NCBI GenBank assembly: GCA_964577555.1
Contig: CAZNZM010000010.1
Location: 1 to 32,000 of the forward strand
Direction of reading: 5' to 3'
Length of the DNA stretch: 32,000 bases
Source of the DNA: an uncultured archaeon
GTDB lineage: Archaea; Iainarchaeota; Iainarchaeia; Iainarchaeales; Iainarchaeaceae
Of this stretch, positions 5,708 through 32,000 are shown one piece after another (position 1 is the stretch's first letter; each line of letters starts with the position of its first letter). The notes under the pieces are model-generated. The model was not told where the DNA came from and searched no databases. It saw nothing but the letters and a program-made list of their open reading frames with translations. The translations under genes were made by a program, and so were the position numbers.

Positions 5708-8700
5708 TTAGATTATTTTTCCAGTTACTGCATCAACTTGGACAATTCTTTTTTTGTCGTTAAGGGTTAAAGAAATGTTCCAAATTGGCCAATAAAGTAC
5801 TTCTATTCTTTTTACTATGGTGTTTGGCCAAAGTTTTTTGAATGATTCAACAGCCTCGTCTTTTGAAACTTTTTCCTTTTCAACGTTTATGGCTTCCATT
5901 TTTGTGAATGGCAAGGCTGAAATTGATGAAAGTAATTCGTGCCTTTCATCTGGCGGCAAATCAATATAATTTGAAACACTATACAAAGATTTTTCATTTT
6001 CGTTTTTTTTGATTATCAATTTTTTTTCTAAAAGCCTGTTTATTGTTCTTAAAGCTTTGGCTTCATCAATATTTGCTGCAGCCATTATTTCCTGGACAAC
6101 CATGTTTTTTCCTCGCAGAAGTTTTATTACTTCAATTTCTTCTTGTGACAATATGCTCATGGCTCTTAAGCCTCTTGATTCTATGAATTGTCCATTTTTG
6201 AAGTGCAAGAATTCGCCAGACTTTGAATTTATATAACATTCTTTGGCTATGAGTTCTCTCCTGCTTGTAATGGCATCGTAAATTATTTTCCATATTGGCG
6301 AATATTTCATTATAATTCCTTCTATTGATTCCGATTTTCCAAATATTCCGAAAATGGCTTTTTTTCTTATACTGTCAGCCAGCTTTAAAGCTGTTTTTTC
6401 ATCAATTCTTTGTGGAAGAGTCAAAATTTCAACAGTTGGCTCCACAATAGAGCTAATCTCTTTTTTCAATTCTTCGAATTTTTTTTCTTTTTCAAAAGGT
6501 TCTTTGGATAATTTTTTGAGTTCCAATTCATCTTCCTTAAATGCTTCCAGTGTTTCATCTTTTGACTCTGCAATTGGATTTTTAGCAAACTTTTCAAGTC
6601 CTGCAATTTCTATCTTGTCAGAACTAACCATAAAGCCAGCTTCAACCAGTTTTTTCAACAATTTATCCATGTCGACTTTTGCTTTGTATTTGGAGTTCAA
6701 TGTTTCTATTGCAAGTTTTGCTTTATCCATGTCAAGCGATTTTTCCTCTTTGATGTTTTTCACCAGCATTTCGAATGCAATTTTATCAACCTGGCTTACA
6801 TCAATTTGCTCAGCCATTCCGGTGGTTTCAGCATCTCTGCCCTCGTGTTGAGATTTTCTTGGCCTAATAGCCATGACAAAAGCCCTGCTTGTTTCTTCTC
6901 GCCTGTCGCCTGTCAAAGCCACGCCAACAGGCAAAGTTTTAATGAAATTCGGGGCTCTGTATTTTCTTGGAATTATCGTAGGAGTTCTTTTGAAAACAGC
7001 TTTTATGTCATCGTCAAATATCAATTTATGAGTAATTATTATGTCTAATTGACTTAGAACTTTTGTATTTATTGCGGAAGGCTGTTGCGTTGCAAAGACA
7101 ACCGAAAGTCCGGGCCTTCTTCCTTGTTTTACATACTCAATGAGCCCTTGAGTAGCCGCGGTTATTTCATTTCCGCTTGGTATAAGGGTATGTGCTTCAT
7201 CTATGAATAGCCAAGTCGGGGGGATTTCAAGCTCCAAGAGTTCATTCATGCTTAAAGACTTGAATTTGTTGGCTGCTTCTTTTCTTGTTGATATTTTTCT
7301 TGCAGCAAGCAGTCTTCTTGAAAGTATTCCAATAACAAGAGCAGTTACGTTGTCTTCCAAGAATGAAGTATCCAATATTGTTAATTGTCCTTCTCTGGAT
7401 AGTTCTCCAAGTGCCGTGCCCTTTTCGTGGAAAATACCCCAACTCTTTGCAGCTTCAAATCTGCTTACAATTGCTCTTATTGAATCAGGTTTGTATCCTT
7501 TGTCCTTGCTATTAAGTTCGGAATCTGTTTCAAGGCACTCAATAAGGTCATCCAAAGAATAATTAGCACCTTTTGGCTGGACTTTTACATTTCCTTCTAT
7601 TTTTTTGTATCCTTTTTCCACTTTTTTCAAAACCTTGTCAAGCAAAAGCCCAGAAACCGAAAACCTATCAACTCCAAAAGTCAAAGCCCAATCTTCGCTT
7701 GTAAGCAATGAAGGCTTTATTGAAAATCCAGCGTCATAAGTTGATTTTGGCACTTGCCCTTTCATTCCTTCAGGTATAAAAACTTTGACATTGTTCAAAC
7801 CTTTGGCATCCAAACCCCATTCTTTAAGCTTTTCAATCTCTTTTTGGTCTTTATTTGGAAACCTCATAGACCAAAAAACACCGATTGGATCAACTACTAT
7901 AATACCTACATTTTTGTTTTTTTCCGCTAGCTCTTCAGCTATTACACCCAAAACGTATGATTTTCCAGAACCCCTTGCGCCGCAAACAAATACCACGTGT
8001 GGATTAAGAGAGTCAAGATAAACATCCCAATCTTCAAATTCTTTTTCTTTCACTTTCCCAACATGCAACCCGCCTTCAAATTTATAATTTGCAAAAACAC
8101 TGGCTTTTCTGCCAATAAAAACCGCTTTTTTTTCGTTGTCTGAAAGAAAAGAAAGTTTTGTCTCTTCCTGCAAAACTTCTTCAGGTTGTACGTTAGTCGC
8201 GGATTTGTCAGCTTTTTCCAAAATCACTTTTTTTATTTCTTCCTTGCTGGGCGCAACGTATTTTTTTTCCTCGCGAGAATAATGGTCTACATCAAAATCA
8301 AATTCTTCATCATCCCAATCTTCAGGGCTTTTTTCATCTTCGTTTTCATCAAAATCTGGATAATCCTCTTCATCAGCAATTTCATCGTCATTGTCTTCGA
8401 TTGTTTCATCTTCTCTAGGCGTTGTTTTGTTTTTTTCTTCTTGCATTTGATTTTTTTTGTGTTGATTGTTTTGTTTCGTTTCGTTTTCTTTTGTTGTTTT
8501 TTCGCTTTTCTTGTCTTTGCTAGGTTCTGCTAATTCTTTTTCAACAATTGTTTTGTAATTGTCTTTTTCCTCTTCTTCTTGTGCTTGGTTTTGTTGATTT
8601 ATTGTTTGGTTGTTTTCTTCTTGTGTTTGCTTTTGTTCTTCTGTTTTGTTTTTTTCCGCAGCATGTTCAACTTTTTTTGTATTGTTTGATTCGCTCTTTT

Positions 8701-8995
8701 GTTTTTTTTTCTTTTTTTCTTCAACCCATTCTTCCGCACCATATTCCTCCAAATATTCTTCCTCTTCTTCGCTGTCTGAAAAATCCATCCATTCGCTTTT
8801 CATTGTTTTTTCAGCTTCTTTTTCTTCATAGTCTTCTGGCATTATCTCCTTTTCATTATTGTCAATAGCTTGGCGCAAAGATTCAACTTTTGATTGCTTT
8901 TCGTTGTCTTTTAGCATTTCCTCAAAAATATCAACGGTGTTTTTATCGTCCTTTTCAGGTTTGTTTTTATGGTTTTTTTCATATTCTTCGTTCAT
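5708..8995 (-). CDS. HerA/FtsK-superfamily (DUF87-type) P-loop ATPase with a long acidic low-complexity N-terminus and a wHTH-containing C-terminal extension
   Basis: Walker A VCGARGSGKSYVLG, Walker B WLFIDEAHTLIP, and the VVFATQQPS motif typical of HerA-like ATPases. The first ~300 aa are E/D/K/N/Q-rich. A C-terminal wHTH-like segment reads EIEVIKLLRGKNMVVQEIMAAANIDEAKALRTINRLLEKKLI. The track ORF extends to 9046; ATG 8995 (MNEEYEK) is preferred because the upstream 50 nt look like promoter. Confidence 0.8.
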   Translation of the reverse strand: MNEEYEKNHKNKPEKDDKNTVDIFEEMLKDNEKQSKVESLRQAIDNNEKEIMPEDYEEKEAEKTMKSEWMDFSDSEEEEEYLEEYGAEEWVEEKKKKKQKSESNNTKKVEHAAEKNKTEEQKQTQEENNQTINQQNQAQEEEEKDNYKTIVEKELAEPSKDKKSEKTTKENETKQNNQHKKNQMQEEKNKTTPREDETIEDNDDEIADEEDYPDFDENEDEKSPEDWDDEEFDFDVDHYSREEKKYVAPSKEEIKKVILEKADKSATNVQPEEVLQEETKLSFLSDNEKKAVFIGRKASVFANYKFEGGLHVGKVKEKEFEDWDVYLDSLNPHVVFVCGARGSGKSYVLGVIAEELAEKNKNVGIIVVDPIGVFWSMRFPNKDQKEIEKLKEWGLDAKGLNNVKVFIPEGMKGQVPKSTYDAGFSIKPSLLTSEDWALTFGVDRFSVSGLLLDKVLKKVEKGYKKIEGNVKVQPKGANYSLDDLIECLETDSELNSKDKGYKPDSIRAIVSRFEAAKSWGIFHEKGTALGELSREGQLTILDTSFLEDNVTALVIGILSRRLLAARKISTRKEAANKFKSLSMNELLELEIPPTWLFIDEAHTLIPSGNEITAATQGLIEYVKQGRRPGLSVVFATQQPSAINTKVLSQLDIIITHKLIFDDDIKAVFKRTPTIIPRKYRAPNFIKTLPVGVALTGDRREETSRAFVMAIRPRKSQHEGRDAETTGMAEQIDVSQVDKIAFEMLVKNIKEEKSLDMDKAKLAIETLNSKYKAKVDMDKLLKKLVEAGFMVSSDKIEIAGLEKFAKNPIAESKDETLEAFKEDELELKKLSKEPFEKEKKFEELKKEISSIVEPTVEILTLPQRIDEKTALKLADSIRKKAIFGIFGKSESIEGIIMKYSPIWKIIYDAITSRRELIAKECYINSKSGEFLHFKNGQFIESRGLRAMSILSQEEIEVIKLLRGKNMVVQEIMAAANIDEAKALRTINRLLEKKLIIKKNENEKSLYSVSNYIDLPPDERHELLSSISALPFTKMEAINVEKEKVSKDEAVESFKKLWPNTIVKRIEVLYWPIWNISLTLNDKKRIVQVDAVTGKII

Positions 8996-9128
8996 ATTAA
9001 AACCAAATAAATAATATGCATGGATAATAAAATTATTCCTATGCAAAACATCTAAAGAACCATTGTTTTTTTGTATTCTGCTTTTTCAACACAAACATTA
9101 ATTAATAAATCGCATATTTTTTTTCTTC

Positions 9129-12720: not shown

Positions 12721-14313
12721 TTATAAATCAAACGGCACTATGCCTTGTTTGACGTATTTCTCTACAATTTCTTGGGTACAATCAGTGTCAGTATTGTACC
12801 AAGAATTAGGATCAAGTTTATATGTGCAAACTCTTGGATCGCATTTTTTGTCATCGTTAATGCAGGTGAGTGCTACTTTGACATTTTGTTGGCATTCTTT
12901 GACGAATAACGAATGTTGAATTGATAAGCAATACTTGTCATCTTTCATTGCCACTGCATAGCGGTTATAGCATTGTTCAGTGCCACTATATTTCAATGAT
13001 CTCATTTCTTTTCTTTGAACTTTGTCGCAAACTTCTGGGACTTTTGCGTCAAGCGCGATTTTTGCATAACAATCCACGTATGCTGAATCTCTTTGGATTT
13101 TTTCGCATTTTCTTGAATCTTTGGTATCAAATGCAATATCGCTAATGCATTTTTCAAACAGTGATTGGTTTGTCCTGCTTATGCCGATGCACAAATCTTC
13201 GTTCTTGATTTTTTTGGATGTTTCGAATATGCATTTATCTTTAAGATCTGTGTTTCCATCTATTTTTAAGCATCTTTCAATTGAATTGAAATCGGAAGCA
13301 TATGCGTAATAACATTCGTTTCTTATTTTTAATTCATTTATTAATGGACAAGTTGATTCGCCATACAAGTTGGTTGCAATATATTTTATACACGAATTTT
13401 TTAATTCATATTTCAAGTTATAACACGCTTTTACGTCTCCTCTTTTGGAAGCATACCATGCGCTGCAATAATCAAATGCATTTTCGTCTTTTACTATGCT
13501 GCAAGAAAAATTTGTGTCTGGAACATTTGATGCGTTTTTGAAGCACTCTGCACTCAAAGCTTTGTCAACAAAGTGGTTACATTTTTCCCCATTATTTGCC
13601 ATGTTTATTTGTTTTAGGCAATCGTCTCTTGCATTTACTCCGACTATTTTATAAGTATCGCTGACTTTAAGGCAAATATCTGGGTCGTTTGTACTTGCCG
13701 CAATTCCTTTATAACATTGGTCTCTGGTTTTAGGCTCAAAAATATTTTTACAAGTATCAAATGTGCCTATTCCGTTGTAGCAATCATCTTTTTTGGCTAC
13801 ATCTTCTATATATTTACAAATTTTGTTGTTTTTAAGTGACTTTCCCACTGAATTATAACAATCGTCTTTGAGATATGTGTCTATGATTTTTATGCAGACG
13901 TTGTAATCAGCCATTGCAACTCCTGCCTCAAAAAAGCATCTTGACTTGAATTCTTCCGACACCAAAGTGCATGGAAATTCGGATTTGTTGGAAGTTGCGG
14001 TGTTAATAAGGCAAATTTCAGCATCAAGAGGCGGGCCAGCATTGCATTTTTCTATGCTACGAACAACTTCTACAGGCACGCCAGGGTATTTATCCAAATT
14101 TATGTCGATTATTTGCTGTTTTGCATCTTTGTTTTCGTCTTCTTTGGGTTTATTAAAATCTATTTGCTTGTTAGTGTCAATATTTTTATTTTGGTCAATT
14201 TCTTTATTTTTATCCAAATTTGGCGGGTTGTCATGTTGTTTGGTTTTTAAACAGCCAAATAATACAATAGATACGCAAAGTATTGCACAAAAAATCAATA
14301 TTTTTTTCTTCAT
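12721..14313 (-). CDS. secreted Cys-rich repeat lipoprotein (hypothetical)
   Basis: Signal peptide with lipobox-like LFGC, then an N/K/D-rich linker. About a dozen degenerate ~30-35 aa repeats follow, each with paired Cys (KDDCY, KKDDCY, TRDQCY, ARDDCL, IRNECY, AYVDCY, TEQCY). Confidence 0.7.
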   Translation of the reverse strand: MKKKILIFCAILCVSIVLFGCLKTKQHDNPPNLDKNKEIDQNKNIDTNKQIDFNKPKEDENKDAKQQIIDINLDKYPGVPVEVVRSIEKCNAGPPLDAEICLINTATSNKSEFPCTLVSEEFKSRCFFEAGVAMADYNVCIKIIDTYLKDDCYNSVGKSLKNNKICKYIEDVAKKDDCYNGIGTFDTCKNIFEPKTRDQCYKGIAASTNDPDICLKVSDTYKIVGVNARDDCLKQINMANNGEKCNHFVDKALSAECFKNASNVPDTNFSCSIVKDENAFDYCSAWYASKRGDVKACYNLKYELKNSCIKYIATNLYGESTCPLINELKIRNECYYAYASDFNSIERCLKIDGNTDLKDKCIFETSKKIKNEDLCIGISRTNQSLFEKCISDIAFDTKDSRKCEKIQRDSAYVDCYAKIALDAKVPEVCDKVQRKEMRSLKYSGTEQCYNRYAVAMKDDKYCLSIQHSLFVKECQQNVKVALTCINDDKKCDPRVCTYKLDPNSWYNTDTDCTQEIVEKYVKQGIVPFDL

Positions 14314-19048: not shown

Positions 19049-19061
19049 AAATTTAGTATTT

Positions 19062-19334
19062 GTGGGCTAGTTCGGAGAGGTAGCGGCTCTCTGTTGCCGG
19101 CAACCCGCTTCAGCCGGGAACGAAGCCACTGAAGAGGCATTAACCATATATTGATGCCTTGCCAGTACTGTGAACTTCTGCTCTTAAAGACTGGCTGTTT
19201 GGGCCAACCCCGCTAGGCCTGGAAGGGAGCAACGGTAACTCATTCAGTCGGTGCTTTAAGGTAAACGGAAGCGAGGAGAGGTTAAGGGTAAACGTCTTTA
19301 TGTGGTTGCTGTCCATTTGGTGGCGCGCCCACAC
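19062..19334 (+). ncRNA. signal recognition particle RNA (archaeal 7S-type)
   Basis: Helix-8 signature CCCCGCUAGGCCUGGAAGGGAGCAACGGUA (compare the conserved AGGCCCGGAAGGGAGCAACGG). The 5' GUGGGC pairs with the 3' GCCCAC to close the molecule. GC content is much higher than the surroundings. ORFs 19140..19367 and 19300..19539 overlap it and are spurious. Confidence 0.88.
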
Positions 19335-19380
19335 TCTTGCAAAAATTATAAAAAAAATACATTTCATTTATACATTTCAT

Positions 19381-20110
19381 TTTTTTTTACTTGGTTTTTT
19401 TTGTAAGTTTTTTTTGTCTTGTTTTTTCGAGCCGTTTTTTGTCATTTTTTTGAATTCTTTTTTTTTTAATTATTTTTTTTTGCAAGTCATTTTTTTTTCA
19501 GTTGTTTTTTTTTGTGAATTTTTTTTTATTTTGTTTTAATTGTTTTGTTTTTGTTTTGGCTGGTTGTTTTTTTTTGTTTCTTTTTTTTGAGTTGTTTTTT
19601 TTAGATGTTTTTTTTTCGAGCCGTTTTTTGTCATTTTTTTGAATTCTTTTTTTTGCGAGCCAATTTTTTTTGTTTTGTTAGTCAAGTTTTGTTTTTTTTA
19701 CGAGTCTTTTTTTGATAATTTTTTTTATTTTTTGATACTTGTTTTTTTTGGTGAGCCACTTTTTTGCCATTTTTCTTTTTTTTGAATTCTTTTTTTTGCG
19801 AGCCAATTTTTTTTGTGAATTTGTTTTTTTTTATTTTGTTTTAATTATTTTTTTGTTTTTTTGAGGTTTGTTTTTTTGTCGGCTATTTTTTTTATTTTTT
19901 TTGCTTATTTTCAAGTCAATTTATTTTTTTTAATTGTTTTTTTTGGCAAGCCATTTTTCGTTTTTTTGCTTGGCCAAGTTTTTTTGTCTTGTTTTTGCGA
20001 GACAATTTTTTTTGTCATTTTTTTTGAATTTTATTTATTTTTTTATGATTTGAATTTTATTTTTTTCTTCGGTATTGTTTTTTTATTTTTCCAGACAATT
20101 TGCGTGATTT
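19381..20110 (+). repeat. T-tract / GC-island repeat array, locus C (largest motif density, internally duplicated)
   Basis: GAGCC[AG] at 19429, 19618, 19657, 19753, 19800. GAATTC at 19452, 19641, 19784. GCAAGTCA 19482, GCAAGCCA 19946, GCGAGACA 19997. Lies between the SRP RNA 3' end and the 3' end of minus-strand CDS 20057..20518, which it overlaps. Confidence 0.88.
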
Positions 20111-20518
20111 ATTTTGCTTTTTTATGACATTTTTTTCTTTTCTTTTTTTGCTTGTTTTTTTGCCTTTATTTTTTTCACTCTTTCCAACAACCCTGTTTTT
20201 CGGTTTTTTCCACGCTTCAAGCGCAGCATCAATTTTTTTTCTTTGTTCGTTTCTTCTTTTTTCTCTTTCATCAAGCTTTGCGATCAACGAATTATATTTT
20301 CTGTGAACTTCTTCGCTGTGTTTTAATGCATTTTTTAAAGAAAGCTCCAAATGCCTTTCTTCCCTCTCTTTATGCAAACCATGAAAAACCCTGTGTAAAA
20401 AACCCAAAGCAACAGAATTATCCGCTTTTGTCTTTCTATATTTGGCTCTTTCTGAATGATGTTTGCTTAAACTTAAATATTTCCTAAATTTAATATAATG
20501 CTTTTCGTGTTTTTCCAT
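20057..20518 (-). CDS. hypothetical basic coiled-coil protein with Lys-rich C-terminal tail
   Basis: 153-aa ORF. The N-terminal two thirds have normal composition with H/K/R/E-rich helices. The last ~50 aa (KKPKNRVVGKSEKNKGKKTSKKRKEKNVIKKQNKSRKLSGKIKKQYRRKK) are encoded by the edge of repeat array C. Confidence 0.5.
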   Translation of the reverse strand: MEKHEKHYIKFRKYLSLSKHHSERAKYRKTKADNSVALGFLHRVFHGLHKEREERHLELSLKNALKHSEEVHRKYNSLIAKLDEREKRRNEQRKKIDAALEAWKKPKNRVVGKSEKNKGKKTSKKRKEKNVIKKQNKSRKLSGKIKKQYRRKK

Positions 20519-21677: not shown

Positions 21678-21750
21678 GCCGAGGTAGCTCAGCAGGTGGA
21701 GCGTCCGGCTGTTAACCGGAAGGTCGGTGGTTCAAATCCACCCTTCGGCG
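21678..21750 (+). tRNA. tRNA-Asn (anticodon GUU), no encoded CCA
   Basis: Hand fold: acceptor GCCGAGG/CUUCGGC, D stem GCUC/GAGC with a GG-containing loop, anticodon stem UCCGG/CCGGA with loop CUGUUAA, T arm GGUGG-UUCAAAU-CCACC. A T6 run follows immediately. Confidence 0.9.
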
Positions 21751-22506
21751 CTTTTTTATTTGTTTCTGAATCCAATTTTTTTGTCTTTTGGCTTGGTTAT
21801 TCTTGGAGCCTGTTTATTTTATTTTTTTTTTGATTTTTTTGTTTTTTTTGTTTTTTTTGTCAAGTTGTTTTTTTTTATTTTTTTTATTTTGGTTTTGTTT
21901 TTTTTGTGAGCCATTTTTTTTGTGGTTTTTTTTGGTTTTTTTTGTGGGATGATTTTTTTTGTCATTATTTTTTTTTGTTTTTTTTGTGAGCCAATTTTGT
22001 TTTTTTTTGTTTTTTTTGTCAAGTTGTTTTTTTTTAGACTTTTTTTTTATTTTTTTTTAATTATTTTTTTTAAATTGATTTTGTTTTTTTTTGTTTTATT
22101 TTATCATTTTTTTTGAATTATTTTTTTTCTTGGTTTTTTTGTTTTTTTTGGTATTGCTAGCCATTTTTTTGTCATTATTTTTTGTGAGCCATTTTTTGTT
22201 ATTTTTTTTGTGATTTTATTTTTTTTATTTAAATTGTTTTGTCTTTTTTTGTGGCTTGTTTTTTTGATTTTTGTTTTTTTTGGCGAGCCGTTTTTTTTGT
22301 GGGGCAATTTTTTTTGTTATTTTTTTTGTGGACTTGTTTTATTTTTTTGTTTTTGTTGGCTTGTTTTTTTGGAGAATTTTTTTGGCAAGCCGTTTCGGAC
22401 TTATTTTTTTTGCTTTGTTTTTTGCTTGTATTTTTTTCAGCATTTTTTTGAATTTGTTTGTTTTTCATTTTTTTGTTTGGCCTTTTTTTATGGTTATTTT
22501 TTAATT
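21751..22506 (+). repeat. T-tract / GC-island repeat array, locus D
   Basis: GAGCC[AG] at 21908, 21988, 22186, 22285. GCTAGCCA 22156, GCAAGCCG 22385. GTCAAGTTGTTTTTTTTT occurs twice (21858, 22018). GTCATTATTTTTT occurs twice (21961, 22171). Spans from the tRNA-Asn 3' end to the stop codon of minus-strand CDS 22507..23337. Confidence 0.88.
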
Positions 22507-25012: not shown

Positions 25013-25181
25013 TCTTGATTTTTTTTGTTTAGCCGAGTTTTTTTGAATCATTTTTGTTTCTTCCGCGTGTTTTTTTTACATGTTTTTGTGATTGTTTTTT
25101 TGTAAGTTGTTTTCTTATTTTGTAATTTGCGAGCCAAGTTTTTTGGACACTTATTTTTTTATTAGTTATAATAATTTTTTT
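25013..25181 (+). repeat. T-tract / GC-island repeat array, locus E (short, degenerate)
   Basis: T6-T8 runs with GCGAGCCA at 25129-25136. Fills the gap between convergent CDS 24506..25012 and the stop of the VirB4-like gene (25182). Confidence 0.65.
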
Positions 25182-26882
25182 TCAGCTTGGCTTCGTATTT
25201 ACTAAGTTAAGTTCTTTTTCCGAGGCTATTACATTTAATGGAATATGGTCATTCATTGCGATGAGTATTCCTTCTCCTGGTTGGGCATTGAGCAGAATGT
25301 TTTGTTCCGAAGGATTGAGCATAAATTTTTCAGCTATTTGGTCAATTGCCCCGGCTTCTTGGCGTCCGAAAAATTTCCACGCGGTGTTTGAGATTATTGT
25401 ATTTCCTGCATTTGTTGATAAAAGGTCTTGCGCTTCTTGTGTTATAATAATTATTCCCATATTGAATTTTCTTGAAGTTTTTACTAGTTCAAAAATGCGA
25501 TTTGCATGTTCCGCATATTTTAGCAAAGACCATGCTTCGTCAACAACAAGAATTTTTTTTCCTTTTTCAGAGCGCATTTTTCCATGGATATACTCCATAA
25601 TGAGAAACATTATTGCTGGTTTAAGCGCTTCGGGCATTTCAGATATGTTAAAACAGACTATTTTTTTATCAGAGAATTGTGCAGTGTGTTTGTCCATAAA
25701 AGAAAAAGAGCCATTGACAAAAATATTAAGCCTGCTTTCAAGTATTGAAAACGTACGTTTTTCATATTTTGCGGCTTTCTTCAATTCTTTTGATATTTCA
25801 AAAAATAGATCGCTTATTAAAGGCGGTTGTCTTTTCCAACTTTCAGGGTTATTGTGAAAAATTCCTTTGTCACTATAAATTTTTTGTATGGCTTTGTCGA
25901 GAATTGATTTTTGTTCTTCGTTCAAATTTCCTAAAAGTATTCCGAAAAAATCTATTAATGAAAGAACCTTTTCGCCAAAGTCGATTCCGGCCATATCAAA
26001 AGGATTTATTGCCTTTCCGCTTTTTGCACTTATTTCAACTACTTCCCCACCATATTTTGAAGTCAGTGCAGAGTATTCGCCTTGCGGATCAATTATTATT
26101 ACTTTGATTCCGATAAATTGGCTTCTTAATATTAAAAGCTTTGCCAATACGCTTTTTCCCCCTCCTGAAGTTCCAAGAATAAGTCCATTATAATTGGCTA
26201 AACTGAATGGGTTTATTATTATGGGAATTTTATTAATCGAGTTTGAGCCGAATAAAATGCCTTCCTCGTCAATATTCAAAAAAGAAGTCGTAAAAGGAAA
26301 GCAGGCAGCCAATGCTGAAGAAGTTATATTTCTGTTGATTTTTAGCAAATCTTTTTGTATTGGAAGGCACGATTTTACAGCTTCATACATTCTCATAAAC
26401 GGTATTTTTGGCACTATCATTATTGAATTCATTTCAGCGCATACTTTTTTTGATGCTATTTCAAGCGATTCCTTGTCATTCGCACGACAATTTACATATA
26501 ATGACATGTTGAACAGTTTTTCCTCGCCTTTTTGCAGCATTTCCAAAACATTCATTGTATCTGCACGCTGTATTCTAAGAGAAGGGTTTACAATTCCTTT
26601 TATTTCAGCAGCGGCAAGATCCGATTCTTGTTTCACAAGTTCTGCATTCAGGCTTGTAAGAACCGAATCAATTTCCATTGGCGCACAATGAATGCTTATG
26701 TCGAAATTGCCTTCACTTGAAACTATTGTATCAAGCCAGCCTTCTTTTATTTCTCTCGGATAACCTACTGCCATGACCGGTCTGTTAAATTCATTTCCTA
26801 AAACCATCCAACCAGGTTCGTTTTTTAGATATGAATGTGTAAAAAGACTTTTTATGTTCTCCATATAAATCACTGATTGCAT
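25182..26882 (-). CDS. VirB4/TrbE-family type IV secretion ATPase (middle and C-terminal ATPase portion)
   Basis: Walker A GTSGGGKSVLAK, Walker B ILVVDEAWSLL, IIITQEAQDL, and the upstream AVGYPREIKEGWL block typical of VirB4 middle domains. There is no SD before ATG 26882. Confidence 0.85.
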   Translation of the reverse strand: MQSVIYMENIKSLFTHSYLKNEPGWMVLGNEFNRPVMAVGYPREIKEGWLDTIVSSEGNFDISIHCAPMEIDSVLTSLNAELVKQESDLAAAEIKGIVNPSLRIQRADTMNVLEMLQKGEEKLFNMSLYVNCRANDKESLEIASKKVCAEMNSIMIVPKIPFMRMYEAVKSCLPIQKDLLKINRNITSSALAACFPFTTSFLNIDEEGILFGSNSINKIPIIINPFSLANYNGLILGTSGGGKSVLAKLLILRSQFIGIKVIIIDPQGEYSALTSKYGGEVVEISAKSGKAINPFDMAGIDFGEKVLSLIDFFGILLGNLNEEQKSILDKAIQKIYSDKGIFHNNPESWKRQPPLISDLFFEISKELKKAAKYEKRTFSILESRLNIFVNGSFSFMDKHTAQFSDKKIVCFNISEMPEALKPAIMFLIMEYIHGKMRSEKGKKILVVDEAWSLLKYAEHANRIFELVKTSRKFNMGIIIITQEAQDLLSTNAGNTIISNTAWKFFGRQEAGAIDQIAEKFMLNPSEQNILLNAQPGEGILIAMNDHIPLNVIASEKELNLVNTKPS

Positions 26883-26890
26883 CCAATTTT

Positions 26891-27733
26891 TTATGATTTT
26901 AAAGATGAGGAAAGAAAAGTAATTTTTCTCGGCTTTTCGAATTTTGAATTTAAATTGTTTCCGGCAATTGCAAGAAAAAGTTTGGCAATTTCGTTTTCGT
27001 CAAGTCTTTTGGCACTTAAACCGCCTTTTTTGAGTTTTGTGATGCAAAGAGAACTTCTTGCTTCCAGCAAACTTTCATCAAGGCTATTCTCCGTTGGATT
27101 GTCTTCTCCAACCACTATGAAAAAACGCCTATTTCTGACTGAATTTTTCCTATTGTAATTTTCGATAAAATTTCTAAATTCAAAAAAATAATCTGAGATT
27201 TTCTTATTTCCTTGCAAAGATGCGCATTTTGATGTTTTTTCAAGGTATTCAAAAAGCGATAATTCAGTTGTTCTGACAAATATTTGTATTGGAAAGTCAA
27301 GGGAGTTAAGAAAGTCTCTATAAGCAACTATCACTGATTCTTGTTGCTTTTGTGAAAGTATTTTGAAATTTATTGGAAAAACTTCTATAATTGCTTTTTT
27401 TGAACCATCATCCAAAATTAATTTGTTGTCTTCTATTTTTTTTATTCCCGTAAATTTTTCAGATTCTTTGTCAAAAAAACCTGATTCTTTTTTTGATAAA
27501 ACAAATGACAGGAAATTAATGGAGTGTCTTGAAAAATCCAAAAACGCAAATCCGAATCCAGCAAAAGCAAGCAATATGAGCGCAGTTATTTTGATTTCAA
27601 TGCTTAAATTTGTTTTAAGGAAAAAAATCAAGCCTATTAAAATAAAAATGCCTAACCAAAAGCATTGTCTTGCTGAAAGATTGAATATTATTTTTTCTTC
27701 ATATTTTAGGTTTTTTGGTATTTCATAAGGCAT
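26891..27733 (-). CDS. VirB3(PrgI/TcpE)-like membrane protein fused to a VirB4 N-terminal-like domain
   Basis: N-terminus MPYEIPKNLKYEEKIIFNLSARQCFWLGIFILIGLIFF matches the PrgI-family pattern (x-Y-x-I-P-K-x-x-x-Y-E-E-K-I-x-F-x-L-S-x-R-Q plus 2 TM). The remainder (AIIEVFPINFKILSQKQQESVIVAYRDFLNSLDFPIQIFV) resembles the N-terminal domain of Gram-positive-type VirB4. GAGGT SD upstream. Confidence 0.6.
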   Translation of the reverse strand: MPYEIPKNLKYEEKIIFNLSARQCFWLGIFILIGLIFFLKTNLSIEIKITALILLAFAGFGFAFLDFSRHSINFLSFVLSKKESGFFDKESEKFTGIKKIEDNKLILDDGSKKAIIEVFPINFKILSQKQQESVIVAYRDFLNSLDFPIQIFVRTTELSLFEYLEKTSKCASLQGNKKISDYFFEFRNFIENYNRKNSVRNRRFFIVVGEDNPTENSLDESLLEARSSLCITKLKKGGLSAKRLDENEIAKLFLAIAGNNLNSKFEKPRKITFLSSSLKS

Positions 27734-27742
27734 GTTTTAACC

Positions 27743-28759
27743 TCAAAATGTCTGCTTTTTTTGGATGTTTTGTCCAGCAAATTGCTTTGCAAAGCTTCCG
27801 TTGAATATTGGAGCAATAACCAAATTGCTTGCAATTTGAATTACCGGTCTGAAAAACGCAAATGCCATTGCCGCAACATTAAATACTCCTATTGTGAAAA
27901 ACGCAAATGCTGGCAAGTATTGTGATGCAGGTGTGTTTCCTAAACCTATAACCACGCCTGTTGCCGCAACGATTATTATTGAATCAAAAAATTGCAACAA
28001 AATGGCTACGCCCAATATTCCAAAAATGGCTTTTCCAAATTGTTTGAGCGGTGGTGTAAAATAACTGAAAATCCCTATTGGAAGTATTGCTGTTCCAACA
28101 AGCAAAATTATTTGCCTGAAAAAAAGTGTGAATCCTGCAAAACCCGCCGCAAAAATTAGAAATATTATTAATAAAGGGTTGCTGTTTTGCATTACTGGAA
28201 AAATAAGTTTTTCAGGATGATTTCCAAGAACATGAGATGCAGCCAAGGTTCCTATTTCTATTAATATTTTGTATAAATCAAATGATGCAGAAATAATAAT
28301 CATTGATATTATCACTCCTTTGATTAATTCTTTGGCTTCTGCTCTTTTGGCATGGTTTTCAAATGCAATTATAAAAAATAATCCTGCGACAGACAAATTC
28401 ATCAAGTAAAACAAGGAAATTAATGCTATTACCGAACTCCAAATGTTTCGCATTGGTTCAATGTCAGGCGGGGAAGCAAGCAACAAATAAAAAAGTTGAG
28501 TAAGAGGGGAACCAAATTCATTTAAAGAATTTTCAAAATAATTTTTGAACAAATCAAAGCCTTGTTGCGGGAGTTTTCCGGTAAAATCCTTGATTTGGTT
28601 GGTTGCACCGCTTATTGCATTTATAACTCCACTTATATCAATATTTATTAAGGGATTTACGATAATTGGGGTTTCATTTTTTGCAGAAAATGCTGATTGG
28701 GAGTTGAAGAGCAGGCATAAGAAAACAATTGGAAGAAAGAACCAAAAAAATTTATCCAT
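27743..28759 (-). CDS. VirB6/TrbL/CedA-like polytopic membrane protein
   Basis: N-terminal signal peptide (…NSQSAFSA) followed by ~6-7 TM helices. Sits between the pilin-like gene and the VirB3/VirB4 genes. GGGAGGG SD upstream. Called from topology and synteny only. Confidence 0.55.
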   Translation of the reverse strand: MDKFFWFFLPIVFLCLLFNSQSAFSAKNETPIIVNPLINIDISGVINAISGATNQIKDFTGKLPQQGFDLFKNYFENSLNEFGSPLTQLFYLLLASPPDIEPMRNIWSSVIALISLFYLMNLSVAGLFFIIAFENHAKRAEAKELIKGVIISMIIISASFDLYKILIEIGTLAASHVLGNHPEKLIFPVMQNSNPLLIIFLIFAAGFAGFTLFFRQIILLVGTAILPIGIFSYFTPPLKQFGKAIFGILGVAILLQFFDSIIIVAATGVVIGLGNTPASQYLPAFAFFTIGVFNVAAMAFAFFRPVIQIASNLVIAPIFNGSFAKQFAGQNIQKKQTF

Positions 28760-28777
28760 AGCCTGCCCTCCCGGGTT

Positions 28778-29077
28778 TCATGGGGATGTAAGATAATTTA
28801 CAACAAGTGGAGCCACCCAAACCAGTACAAGCCCTACAATAGCGTATGACACCATTGATTTTGCATTTTCCCTTGTTTGAATGTTATTGCCAGAAAACAT
28901 GTACATTGCTCCGGCGGCTGTTATCGCTATTACTCCAAGAACCGAAATTATTGCTTTCATCAAATCATAGATTTTTGTTATCGGCTCTTTGATTTTTTCC
29001 ATATCACTTGTTGTTTCAGCTAAGCAAAAACCTGAAAGCAATATAGTTGCAATAAGAATTGTTGTAATAGTTTTCAT
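28778..29077 (-). CDS. VirB2/TrbC/CedA1-like pilin candidate
   Basis: 99 aa with a signal peptide (MKTITTILIATILLSGFCLA|ETT), then two hydrophobic helices separated by a short polar loop (SGNNIQTRENAKS). This is the canonical VirB2 topology. Strong SD GGAGGTG 5 nt upstream of the ATG, and it is the first gene of the operon. Confidence 0.6.
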   Translation of the reverse strand: MKTITTILIATILLSGFCLAETTSDMEKIKEPITKIYDLMKAIISVLGVIAITAAGAMYMFSGNNIQTRENAKSMVSYAIVGLVLVWVAPLVVNYLTSP

Positions 29078-29244
29078 ACAACACCTCCGAAGTTTGTTTA
29101 ATTCATCTTCCTTTTGTGTTGTATAAATACTTTTGGTTTTGCAAGTATAGATTTTTTGGAATTTGAATGAGTAATTTTAACTCGGCAAATCGGATTTTTG
29201 AAATTTATGTGTTTAGAATTATTGTATAAATCGTGCTGTTTTTT

Positions 29245-29595
29245 TTATCCTATCATTTTTCCATGAAATAAACCTTGTTGTTCGTCATTTTTAATTTTTG
29301 GGTTTTTTTGTTCGATTTTTTCTTTCAATTTTTGCACAATTTTTTTTCCTTTGGATTCGTTGATTATTGCAACGATTTCGTGTTTTGGTACAGGGGCGCC
29401 GCCGACTGCAACAGGCGAGTAGTCAACCGAAACATAATCGTTTTCCTTGATGTCTTTTGCTATCATTGGATTTACTTTGAATATTATCAGGTTGTCGTCC
29501 CACATTTCTACAAGCGCTTGGCTTGTTTGTTCTGCAAATTTTGAACCTTTTTCTTCCGGGTTAAGTATGTGAATAACTTTTCCTATGTGATACAT
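29245..29595 (-). CDS. hypothetical protein (116 aa)
   Basis: Intact ORF with a GAGGTG SD and non-repetitive composition. No motif recognised. Lies upstream of, and on the same strand as, the T4SS-like operon. Confidence 0.5.
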   Translation of the reverse strand: MYHIGKVIHILNPEEKGSKFAEQTSQALVEMWDDNLIIFKVNPMIAKDIKENDYVSVDYSPVAVGGAPVPKHEIVAIINESKGKKIVQKLKEKIEQKNPKIKNDEQQGLFHGKMIG

Positions 29596-31792: not shown

Positions 31793-32000
31793 TTAACTGC
31801 ATCCGCTTGTGGCGCCGCAATCTTCGCATACTGTGCAAGCACCATTTCTTTTAACGCGCATTGAACCGCAACTCGCACAAGAGTCTCCAGTATAACCCTT
31901 GTTGCGCGCCAATTTTGTCTTTATTTCTTCTTCTTTGCCCATCTTGTCCAATTCTTCCATTGTTTTTGGCGTTTCTTTTTTGGCTTCAAGTTCTGGCGGA
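31793..32000 (-). CDS. C-terminal fragment of a probable class II (B12-dependent) ribonucleotide reductase; the gene continues beyond the window
   Basis: Hand translation of the minus strand gives …KLARNKGYTGDSCASCGSMRVKRNGACTVCEDCGATSGCS*. This CxxC…CxxC…GCS zinc-ribbon tail is characteristic of NrdJ-type RNRs. It is not in the ORF track because it has no start in the window. Confidence 0.55.
   Translation of the reverse strand, partial: PPELEAKKETPKTMEELDKMGKEEEIKTKLARNKGYTGDSCASCGSMRVKRNGACTVCEDCGATSGCS

Follow-up and report, generated by a model that had tools for sequence, protein, structure and literature searches.

The window examined here, a stretch of 32 kb from an uncultured archaeon (contig CAZNZM010000010.1, positions 1 to 32,000), carries a cluster of four genes that an earlier note, made from the letters alone, had described as a minimal type IV secretion operon. 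We find that this module is a complete, minimal type IV secretion system (T4SS) of the monoderm, MPF-FATA-like type in an Iainarchaeia-like DPANN archaeon. The best reading of the sequence data is that the window copy would be a chromosomally fixed, still functional, integrase-less derivative of a T4SS that belongs to DPANN mobile elements. Regarding its present use, our analysis leans, by a modest degree of confidence, to an apparatus retained by the chromosome for contact-dependent exchange or uptake of DNA.

The four genes of the module

The module consists of four co-directional open reading frames (ORFs) on the minus strand, encoding proteins of 99, 338, 280 and 566 amino acids (aa), and the coordinates (Table 1), strand and gap sizes given by the earlier note were reproduced exactly. 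The gaps between the genes measure 18, 9 and 8 nt, which suggests that the four are transcribed as one unit from one transcript. In the non-coding region ahead of the first gene, a TATA-like TATTTATAC lies ~45-52 nt upstream of the pilin ATG and a Shine-Dalgarno-like GGAGGTG motif 5 nt upstream of it; the region may act as the promoter. In what follows, labels such as L001 denote the loci of relatives that were retrieved, L001 being that of a 95%-identical strain present in JGI 3300010938.

Table 1. Positions of the module, its surroundings and the tRNA-integrase junctions of relatives. Positions without a locus label are those of the window.
Feature	Position	Strand	Basis or remark
VirB2/TrbC-type T4SS pilin, 99 aa	28778..29077	-	Pfam T4SS_pilin and TrbC
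Non-coding region upstream of the pilin gene	29078..29244	-	Read from the sequence
Probable VirB6/TrbL-like polytopic membrane protein, 338 aa	27743..28759	-	Orthologue annotation, predicted fold, pilin-like hairpin
PrgI/VirB3-like anchor with two transmembrane segments, plus VirB4 N-domain (TraC-like/TrsD-like), 280 aa	26891..27733	-	Pfam PrgI
VirB4 ATPase body (middle and C-terminal ATPase domains), 566 aa	25182..26882	-	P-loop_TraG, AAA_10, DUF87
TrmB-family winged-helix regulator, 168 aa	24506..25012	+	Pfam TrmB (E=2.5e-6); convergent with VirB4
tRNA-Asn(GTT)	21678..21751	+	ARAGORN and Rfam; 3' end faces the module
tRNA-integrase junctions of four relatives	L061 2269-3609; L071 518-1829; L074 4100-5419; L077 1573-2879		Module 3-4 kb further on

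The 99-aa protein is, judging by its sequence, a Sec-exported VirB2-type pilin. It matches both Pfam pilin families above their gathering thresholds, T4SS_pilin (PF18895) with E=6.6e-13 and 49.0 bits (cutoff 26.6) and TrbC/VirB2 (PF04956) with E=3.2e-10 and 40.5 bits (cutoff 27.9), which bears out the earlier description of a VirB2-like two-helix pilin with a signal peptide. A weak NCBIfam match (23 bits, cutoff 40) was also obtained to the Mbov_0395 family, pilin-like proteins of a Mycoplasma integrative and conjugative element (ICE). The sequence and an alignment of 20 orthologues place the signal peptide at residues 1-20 (ending in FCLA, with ET following) and two hydrophobic helices after it; the leader is hydrophobic and ends in this A-x-A-like FCLA, and both hydrophobic stretches are conserved. 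Searches of the PDB with the pilin and with its family profile returned no solved pilin at E<=10, only chance matches. Pilin orthologues are present in 62/85 related loci.

The 280-aa and 566-aa proteins, on the evidence of their alignments, are together one full-length VirB3-VirB4. The former matches PrgI (PF12666) over residues 5-88 (E=4.4e-12, 46.8 bits, cutoff 27), its orthologues carry the precomputed families PF12666 and PF26593 (TraC-like), and it aligns colinearly with P0116, a PrgI-VirB4 fusion of 980 aa, over residues 1-230 of the latter (34% identity, E=7e-34); this match and this colinearity sustain the proposal of the earlier note that a PrgI/VirB3-like protein is here fused to a VirB4 N-domain. 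The 566-aa protein matches P-loop_TraG (PF19044; 5.3e-21, 75 bits, cutoff 25.8), AAA_10 (PF12846; 66 bits, cutoff 27.5) and DUF87. Its VirB4 motifs are intact (Walker A GTSGGGKS, Walker B ILVVDEAW, plus IIITQE), and the closest solved structure is the Thermoanaerobacter VirB4 4ag5 (E=1.2e-27), with HerA and TrwK far behind; family matches, structure and motifs thus agree with the VirB4 ATPase with Walker A/B and DEAW/ITQ motifs that had been proposed. The two proteins occupy successive parts of the CD1110 VirB4 model of NCBIfam, positions 27-164 for the 280-aa protein (E=0.0022) and 204-751 for the 566-aa protein (283 bits, below the cutoff of 325), and the fused orthologue P0116 covers positions 25-728 with 331 bits, above that cutoff.

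Homologues of the 566-aa protein are mostly ~745 aa long and some ~980 aa, the latter having PrgI, a TraC-like N-domain and the ATPase in one chain. The VirB3-N-domain has a gene of its own in L001 and in 41 of the fetched loci, and some other loci have it fused to VirB4. Since the split is conserved in L001 and in these 41 loci and the two ORFs lie in different frames, we regard it as an old, genuine arrangement and not an error. In-frame read-through across the split was considered and is ruled out by the different frames and by the conservation of the split in many genomes. A free-standing VirB4 N-domain protein is not without parallel: pGO1 has TrsD, and Patescibacteria have one as well (PMC12102498).

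The ranking of model scores and the plasmid-borne homologues support the view that the 566-aa protein would be a conjugative VirB4 of MPF-FATA-like kind. Its NCBIfam scores are 283 bits for conju_CD1110, 263 for Mbov_0397, 151 for TraC-F and 120 for VirB4_CagE, followed by 57.4 for CedB (cutoff 700), 54 for TrbE, 44.5 for CedD (cutoff 600) and 15 for HerA_antiphage. The nearest homologues on plasmids are VirB4 proteins of the CD1110 family from megaplasmids of Firmicutes and Actinobacteria, at 27-31% identity, so that the MPF-FATA affinity proposed for the ATPase held up. The earlier note had likewise seen in the module the logic of the archaeal Ced/Ted systems; the gene logic is indeed alike, but kinship is not supported, with 57 bits for CedB and 44 for CedD against 283 for CD1110. 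Membership of the Ced family is ruled out by scores this far below the cutoffs. Neither the pilin nor the 338-aa protein matched any Ced model at E<=0.01.

The 338-aa protein is probably, although not provenly, the VirB6-like membrane platform. It consists of an N-terminal signal or transmembrane (TM) helix, then a brief extracellular stretch and then some five long TM helices. No Pfam or NCBIfam model matched it directly, nor did any on a rescan of the L002 orthologue; the precomputed family PF19590 (TrbL_3) is present on the orthologues in L002-L004 and on ~14/99 database homologues. The AlphaFold model is all-helical and polytopic (pLDDT 74.4), and the sole natural PDB entries that Foldseek matched to it with high probability are TrwI/VirB6 chains of the R388 T4SS (prob 0.93-1.00, TM score 0.31-0.52, weak E=0.1-0.2), among them 7o3v_J (prob 1.00, TM score 0.42/0.52, weak E=0.1). 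In addition, hhalign places the pilin profile on residues 105-156 (95.5%, E=1.6e-8), and such a pilin inside VirB6 has been reported for CedA/CedA1 and VirB6/VirB2 (PMC9905601). Orthologues occur in 67/85 loci, placed between the pilin and VirB3/VirB4. A homologue search by word index, with this protein as the sole query, found only the near-identical strain, and sequence and profile searches of the PDB with it and with the 280-aa protein gave nothing meaningful; the VirB6-like family numbers 894 cluster representatives at E<=1e-3. The polytopic VirB6-like protein of the earlier note is thus retained by way of orthologue annotation, model fold, pilin-like hairpin and gene position, a direct hidden Markov model (HMM) match being absent.

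Relatives in DPANN archaea and their mobile-element signature

A pattern (alignment-based) scan of one genome per GTDB species identified 270 loci with relatives; 85 loci were retrieved in all, and their ORFs were called and clustered. The alignment-based query succeeded where a scan with a single protein as query found nothing. The best 80 of the 270 loci come from metagenome-assembled genomes (MAGs) under the labels Iainarchaeum, Woesearchaeota, Pacearchaeota or Nanoarchaeota; seven assemblies are represented twice among these 80. A scan of viral contigs found no relative.

The gene order in the family is pilin, VirB6-like protein, VirB3-N-domain (separate or fused) and VirB4, with an additional secreted protein of ~444 aa after the pilin in Woesearchaeota and Pacearchaeota only. 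A cluster of tyrosine recombinases (precomputed PF00589) lies upstream on the same strand. In a profile search, a recombinase was found within 10 kb of the module in 29/85 loci, and in 18/45 of the loci with >=9 kb of upstream flank. In four loci 82-89 nt separate the 3' end of a tRNA (tRNA-Asp in three, tRNA-Cys in one) from the start of the tyrosine integrase that follows it, and this is the classical junction of a site-specifically integrated element. No attR repeat was found within the 20 kb retrieved for these four, and a search for att repeats in L001-L004 and the same four gave none; because no att repeats were found in any locus searched, the boundaries of the elements are not definable. 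The cargo between integrase and module, or downstream, includes an N6/N4 DNA methylase and a C5 methylase, GmrSD, an AbiEii-like ATPase, HATPase_c_3 proteins, type I restriction systems and Fic. Closely related modules have differing flanks, for example L003, L017, L041 and L016. Of the gene clusters obtained from the 85 loci, none corresponded to a relaxase, a coupling protein or a replication gene. The recombinases, tRNA junctions and defence cargo of the relatives indicate that the family is primarily a mobile-element module, and on these sequence features it is best described as the transfer module of small integrated DPANN mobile elements.

Most relatives carry a domain that the window VirB4 does not have. 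Proteins of ~745 aa match the window VirB4 over their own first 560 residues and then continue for ~190 residues, as in the aligned 759-aa P0018 (residues 560-759, L002 11680-12280). In this extension the residues E..H, D and E-x-E are invariant. The structural model (pLDDT 86) has a small winged-helix-like unit followed by an alpha/beta domain, and the latter gave structural matches, the best being to VC1899 (prob 0.95), BamHI, OkrAI, MspJI, ERCC1, VRR_NUC and McrC with weak E values of 0.007-0.4; the extension is therefore predicted, from its modelled fold, to be a winged helix-turn-helix joined to a PD-(D/E)xK restriction-endonuclease fold. It had no match by sequence in Pfam, PHROG or the PDB. 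We consider that it may substitute for relaxase or coupling function. The VirB4 of the window and that of L001 are without the extension, and tblastn found no remnant of it downstream of the window VirB4, where the spacer is an A/T-rich low-complexity repeat. The DUF4145 gene that lies downstream in relatives is missing in the window as well.

The TrmB-family gene convergent with VirB4 is probably part of the module as its associated regulator, a role suggested by position: homologues lie just downstream of VirB4 in 19 related loci, mostly on the opposite strand, and these include loci with an integrase (L004, L018) as well as syntenic ones (L001, L021).

Several observations on the family stand apart from the window. 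The ~444-aa secreted protein is rich in Asn, Tyr and Ser and has a C-terminal TM helix; it stands between pilin and VirB6 in the Woesearchaeota/Pacearchaeota clade (L005 7738-9114, L064 2876-4210 and 33 other loci) and is possibly an adhesin or pilus-tip protein; the window does not have it. In some database proteins of 650-700 aa it appears fused to the VirB6-like domain. A secretion ATPase of ~352 aa, VirB11/PilT/ArlI-like with a GSGKTS Walker A, is found ~8 kb upstream of VirB4 and on the same strand as the module in four loci (L009, L013/L014, L027) and is likewise absent from the window. At L054 and L078 (both on the 697-kb contig JAHWHZ010000001.1), L083 and L070, one contig carries a pair of T4SS modules, either ~20 kb or less apart or back to back, and such pairs suggest the accretion of several elements. 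L019 (CAYJWI010000030.1) is rearranged, with a short 565-aa VirB4 that has no C-terminal domain and is convergent with VirB3-N-domain, VirB6 and pilin; its assembly has a second, canonical copy (L014). Some contigs that carry the module (L013, L046, L080, L081 and P0015) are binned as Peregrinibacteria, Bdellovibrionales, Methanosarcinales or Sphaerochaetaceae, and these are either mis-binned DPANN contigs or cases of transfer into other lineages. For comparison, 37 Patescibacteria VirB4 proteins are reported to cluster with archaeal homologues (PMC12102498).

The window copy on its chromosome and the explanations weighed

The markers in the window point to an archaeal, DPANN and Iainarchaeia-like chromosome: an archaeal signal recognition particle (SRP) RNA at 19060-19334, two tRNAs, FtsZ, the PAN proteasome ATPase, a surface-layer (S-layer)-like protein and GlmS/GlmM/GlmU, with Iainarchaeum/Diapherotrites MAGs as the nearest named relatives. 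The DPANN, chromosomal-looking setting proposed beforehand is thereby supported. The GC content of the cluster is 32-35%, the same as in its flanks. By Pfam and NCBIfam models and a recombinase profile search, no integrase, relaxase, VirD4-type coupling protein or replication gene is present in the 32 kb, so that an absence first noted for the near neighbourhood extends to the whole window.

The position of the module is common to the window and to two divergent genomes, L021 and L023, as found in the comparison of synteny that the earlier note had proposed. In L021, whose FtsZ is 83% and whose VirB4 is 54% identical to that of the window, the flanks are as in the window: at one end of the module stands a DEAD-box helicase, and at the other come TrmB, tRNA-Asn, the membrane protein c48, FtsZ, an M50 protease and PAN. 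L023 has in common with the window the flank of ribonucleotide reductase (RNR), HGSNAT and DEAD helicase. No recombinase was found in the window, in L001 including its further flank (where RNR, thioredoxin and housekeeping genes are visible), in L021 or in L023.

In the window versus L001 comparison, the ratio of nonsynonymous to synonymous substitution (dN/dS) is 0.089 for the pilin, 0.088 for the VirB6-like protein, 0.111 for the VirB3-N-domain and 0.054 for VirB4 at a dS of ~0.6, and neighbouring housekeeping genes have dN/dS of 0.018-0.116 at a dS of 0.45-0.59. The low ratios and a dS as in the flanks mean that the module has diverged in step with the chromosome and that strong purifying selection acts on it.

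A proposed mechanism, built on the roles of VirB2, VirB3, VirB4 and VirB6 in studied T4SS and on the R388 structure with its similar VirB6, would run as follows. VirB4 hexamers, bound through VirB3 and the N-domain to the VirB6 platform, would extract the pilin from the membrane, and the extracted pilin would polymerise into a VirB2-type pilus or conduit through the S-layer; in a cell enclosed by one membrane and an S-layer, the machine would require no other envelope parts. The apparatus would then mediate contact-dependent DNA transfer between cells. It would be kept by the chromosome, as Ced/Ted are in Crenarchaeota, and not in order to move an element of its own. The family travels with integrases and DNA-modification cargo, and its ancestral job was on our analysis most likely cell-to-cell DNA transfer, which would have been free of a relaxase as in other archaeal conjugative elements (PMC6563490).

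Several points weigh against retention for DNA exchange. The pilus, the substrate and the direction of transfer (import or export) are all inferred; the VirB6 assignment leans on weak scores (Foldseek E=0.1, no direct HMM match); and, having lost the nuclease domain, the system could just as well have stopped acting on DNA. When the VirB4 core is placed in a neighbour-joining tree, 99/100 bootstraps join L021 to integrase-bearing copies and leave the window outside that group, with the pair of window and L001 on a long branch. The tree thus gives no support to simple vertical inheritance at the common locus; the grouping could be a long-branch effect, or it could reflect repeated insertion or replacement at a tRNA-Asn hot spot. 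Finally, ~6.8 kb of the 38.8-kb source contig lie outside the window, and an integrase, coupling protein or relaxase could lie elsewhere in the genome.

The first alternative to weigh is a host-interaction apparatus, serving attachment to a host cell or the uptake or delivery of non-DNA material with no gene transfer; we consider it rather unlikely, with a real minority share of the probability. The gene set is that of the chromosomal T4SS of Patescibacteria, where a relaxase is rare (PMC12102498), and T4SS genes are essential for epibiotic growth in Saccharibacteria. The organism here is a DPANN archaeon with a probably host-dependent lifestyle, its VirB4 has lost the nuclease-fold domain that could process DNA, and purifying selection on the module is strong. 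However, the family is patchy in DPANN, often present in two copies and accompanied by integrases, methylases and restriction cargo, as would sooner be expected of a mobile element than of a core symbiosis organelle, and no effector-like or adhesin gene is linked to the module in the window, where the c4 surface protein of Woesearchaeota/Pacearchaeota is absent.

A still-mobile ICE or genomic island, whose integrase and perhaps other transfer genes lie beyond the window or act in trans, is in our judgement unlikely, and somewhat more so than a role in host interaction. It would draw on the integrase-borne relatives, on the stretch of contig outside the window, on the L021 VirB4 being closer to integrase-bearing copies than to the window copy, and on the tRNA-Asn at the island border, whose 3' end is turned toward the island in the window as well as in L001 and L021. 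In L021 and L001 this tRNA stands directly beside TrmB and the module, and it is a possible old integration site and island border. Yet no second copy of its 3' end was found in the window or L021 (>=17 nt, <=3 mismatches), so that there is no recognisable att repeat, and a search of the window for long direct repeats gave nothing convincing. The module is read in the direction of the tRNA-Asn, the reverse of the order tRNA, integrase, module in the elements of Woesearchaeota and Pacearchaeota. No recombinase turned up over 25 kb on one side or, in the syntenic strain L001, over an additional ~8 kb on the other, the flanks are conserved in genomes at only 83% FtsZ identity, and base composition and dS are those of the flanks. 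The integrase of relatives lies 3-4 kb upstream of the pilin, and in the window that place is taken by HGSNAT, the DEAD helicase and RNR. A search for an empty site, by a metagenome scan with the neighbouring DEAD helicase, returned only a match of 26% identity.

The two remaining explanations have little left to them. A decaying, non-functional remnant of an integrated element would account for the missing integrase, VirB4 C-terminal domain and downstream DUF4145 gene, but it is very improbable, since the four frames are intact in two strains at a dS of ~0.6, their dN/dS of 0.05-0.11 is as low as in housekeeping neighbours, and the Walker motifs are intact. That there is no T4SS at all, only a HerA/FtsK-type ATPase beside unrelated small membrane proteins, could appeal to the match to the DUF87/HerA central domain, a weak PDB match to HerA (4e-6) and the public homologue name 'DUF87 domain-containing protein', but we count it as refuted by VirB4-specific models at 120-283 bits against 15 for HerA, by pilin and PrgI matches above the Pfam gathering thresholds and by the co-occurrence of the four genes in order across dozens of loci. 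The same scores rule out a HerA/FtsK identity of the ATPase; a place in such clades was part of what the earlier note had named as speaking against its proposal.

Some neighbouring features may be recorded here. Adjoining the pilin gene, the order RNR, HGSNAT, DEAD helicase is conserved; the window ends within the C-terminus of the class II-like RNR (31793-32000, minus strand), which is also found at L001 1577-5056 and L023 2-3454, the latter with an intein-like insertion. Upstream of the pilin gene, at a distance of 167 nt and likewise on the minus strand, is a 116-aa ORF (29245-29595); it has no family match, is conserved in L001 only (94%) and is probably outside the module. At 5708-9046 (minus strand) a 1112-aa protein has a highly acidic low-complexity N-terminus of ~300 aa, continues with a HerA/DUF87 ATPase core and carries a TrmB/Sta1-like winged helix at its C-terminus; this HerA-like ATPase has no TM segment and no VirD4/TraG match and lies ~16 kb from the T4SS module. 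At 12721-14313 (minus strand) a secreted cysteine-rich repeat protein of 530 aa has a lipobox-like LFGC after its leader and no Pfam or NCBIfam family match. Long, degenerate T-rich tandem repeats (A-rich on the opposite strand) occur at 19350-20200, 21750-22500 and 25013-25180 of the window and at L001 11700-12600, with periods of ~13-16, 27, 42 and 57 nt, and yield spurious lysine-rich or phenylalanine-rich ORFs; the repeat spacer between VirB4 and TrmB is ~170 nt long in the window versus ~930 nt in the 95%-identical strain.

Relation to known systems and significance

Archaeal T4SS modules, Ced/Ted and the T4SS of Patescibacteria are already known as kinds, and the module can be set against each. 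With the MPF-FATA systems (Tn916/CD1110, pCF10 PrgI/PrgJ/PrgH, pGO1 TrsC/TrsD/TrsE, Mbov_0395/0397) it has in common the best VirB4 models, a PrgI-type VirB3, a separate VirB4 N-domain protein as in TrsD of pGO1 (PMC12102498) and the absence of outer-membrane components. Unlike them, the window module is without a relaxase, a VirD4/TcpA coupling protein, a VirB8-like protein or a cell-wall hydrolase, its PrgI is fused to the N-domain protein, its host is an archaeon and its identity to bacterial VirB4 is 27-31%; in addition, it has a clear VirB2/TrbC pilin, whereas classical MPF-FATA systems have none.

The chromosomal T4SS of Patescibacteria (the candidate phyla radiation, CPR) presents the same reduced set of VirB4, TrsD-like protein, PrgI, VirB6 and VirB2 pilins (PMC12102498), usually without a relaxase, in ultrasmall, host-dependent organisms and with an MPF-FATA origin. 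It is near-universal and chromosomal, with VirB4 in 2,417/3,035 assemblies, and is essential for epibiotic growth in Southlakia (PMC12102498). The DPANN family differs in being patchy and frequently integrase-borne, and VirB3-VirB4 fusions, of which the Patescibacteria study reports none (PMC12102498), are common in it.

The DNA-import systems Ced, from Sulfolobales, and Ted, from Thermoproteales (PMC9905601), follow the same logic, combining a VirB2-like pilin, a VirB6-like channel and a VirB4-like ATPase on the chromosome and without a relaxase; the cleavable signal peptide of the pilin recalls TedC, and the pilin-like segment inside the VirB6-like protein recalls CedA/CedA1. However, the window module has a VirB3/PrgI component, and Ced/Ted have none on record; nor are HerA, Rad50 and ParA its neighbours, as they are at Ted loci.

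Archaeal ICEs and Sulfolobus conjugative plasmids likewise have a T4SS with VirB4, VirB6 and VirB3, no recognisable relaxase, tyrosine integrases and restriction-modification cargo (PMC6563490). They contain a pair of VirB4 and VirD4 at a median size of 64 kb (PMC6563490), whereas the DPANN modules contain VirB4 only, in a core of ~8-10 kb, with VirB4 often fused to the nuclease-fold domain; the window copy moreover has no integrase. The nanohaloarchaeal SPEARE loci (PMC10266531) also place VirB4-like ATPases in DPANN and have been proposed to serve host interaction, but they are giant surface proteins with Ig repeats and an ATPase domain next to a VirB4, and no operon of pilin, VirB6 and PrgI is described for them (PMC10266531).

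These loci are the sole discussion of a DPANN VirB4 that we found in the literature. We found no description of the DPANN module (pilin, VirB6, split or fused VirB3-VirB4, nuclease-tipped VirB4 and tRNA-integrase context) in the searchable literature, which is not proof of its absence, and in public databases the proteins of the family are named 'DUF87 domain-containing', 'hypothetical' or 'TraC'. As a tentative extension, which we hold to be possible but would not yet bet on, the relatives could be undescribed, ultra-compact conjugative-type elements of DPANN, with a core of ~8-10 kb made of a tRNA-targeting integrase, an orphan methylase, pilin, VirB6 and VirB3-VirB4, in which the winged-helix and PD-(D/E)xK domain of VirB4 would replace the relaxase and coupling protein; the lineage of the window would have domesticated the apparatus, shedding integrase and nuclease, for chromosomal DNA exchange or for the acquisition of DNA from its host.

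The current view of DPANN archaea is that they rely on touching host cells. The module bears on how they exchange DNA or other material with these hosts, and on archaeal conjugation that proceeds without a relaxase. As a defined apparatus of four genes, it could be expressed and imaged. Its relatives form a natural series, from integrase-borne copies with a nuclease-tipped VirB4, through fused and split forms of VirB3-VirB4, to the fixed, nuclease-less copy of the window, and this series offers a way to ask which parts self-transfer requires and which serve a function retained by the host. The locus also gives the stripped-down T4SS of Patescibacteria an archaeal counterpart, with a clearer origin in mobile elements.

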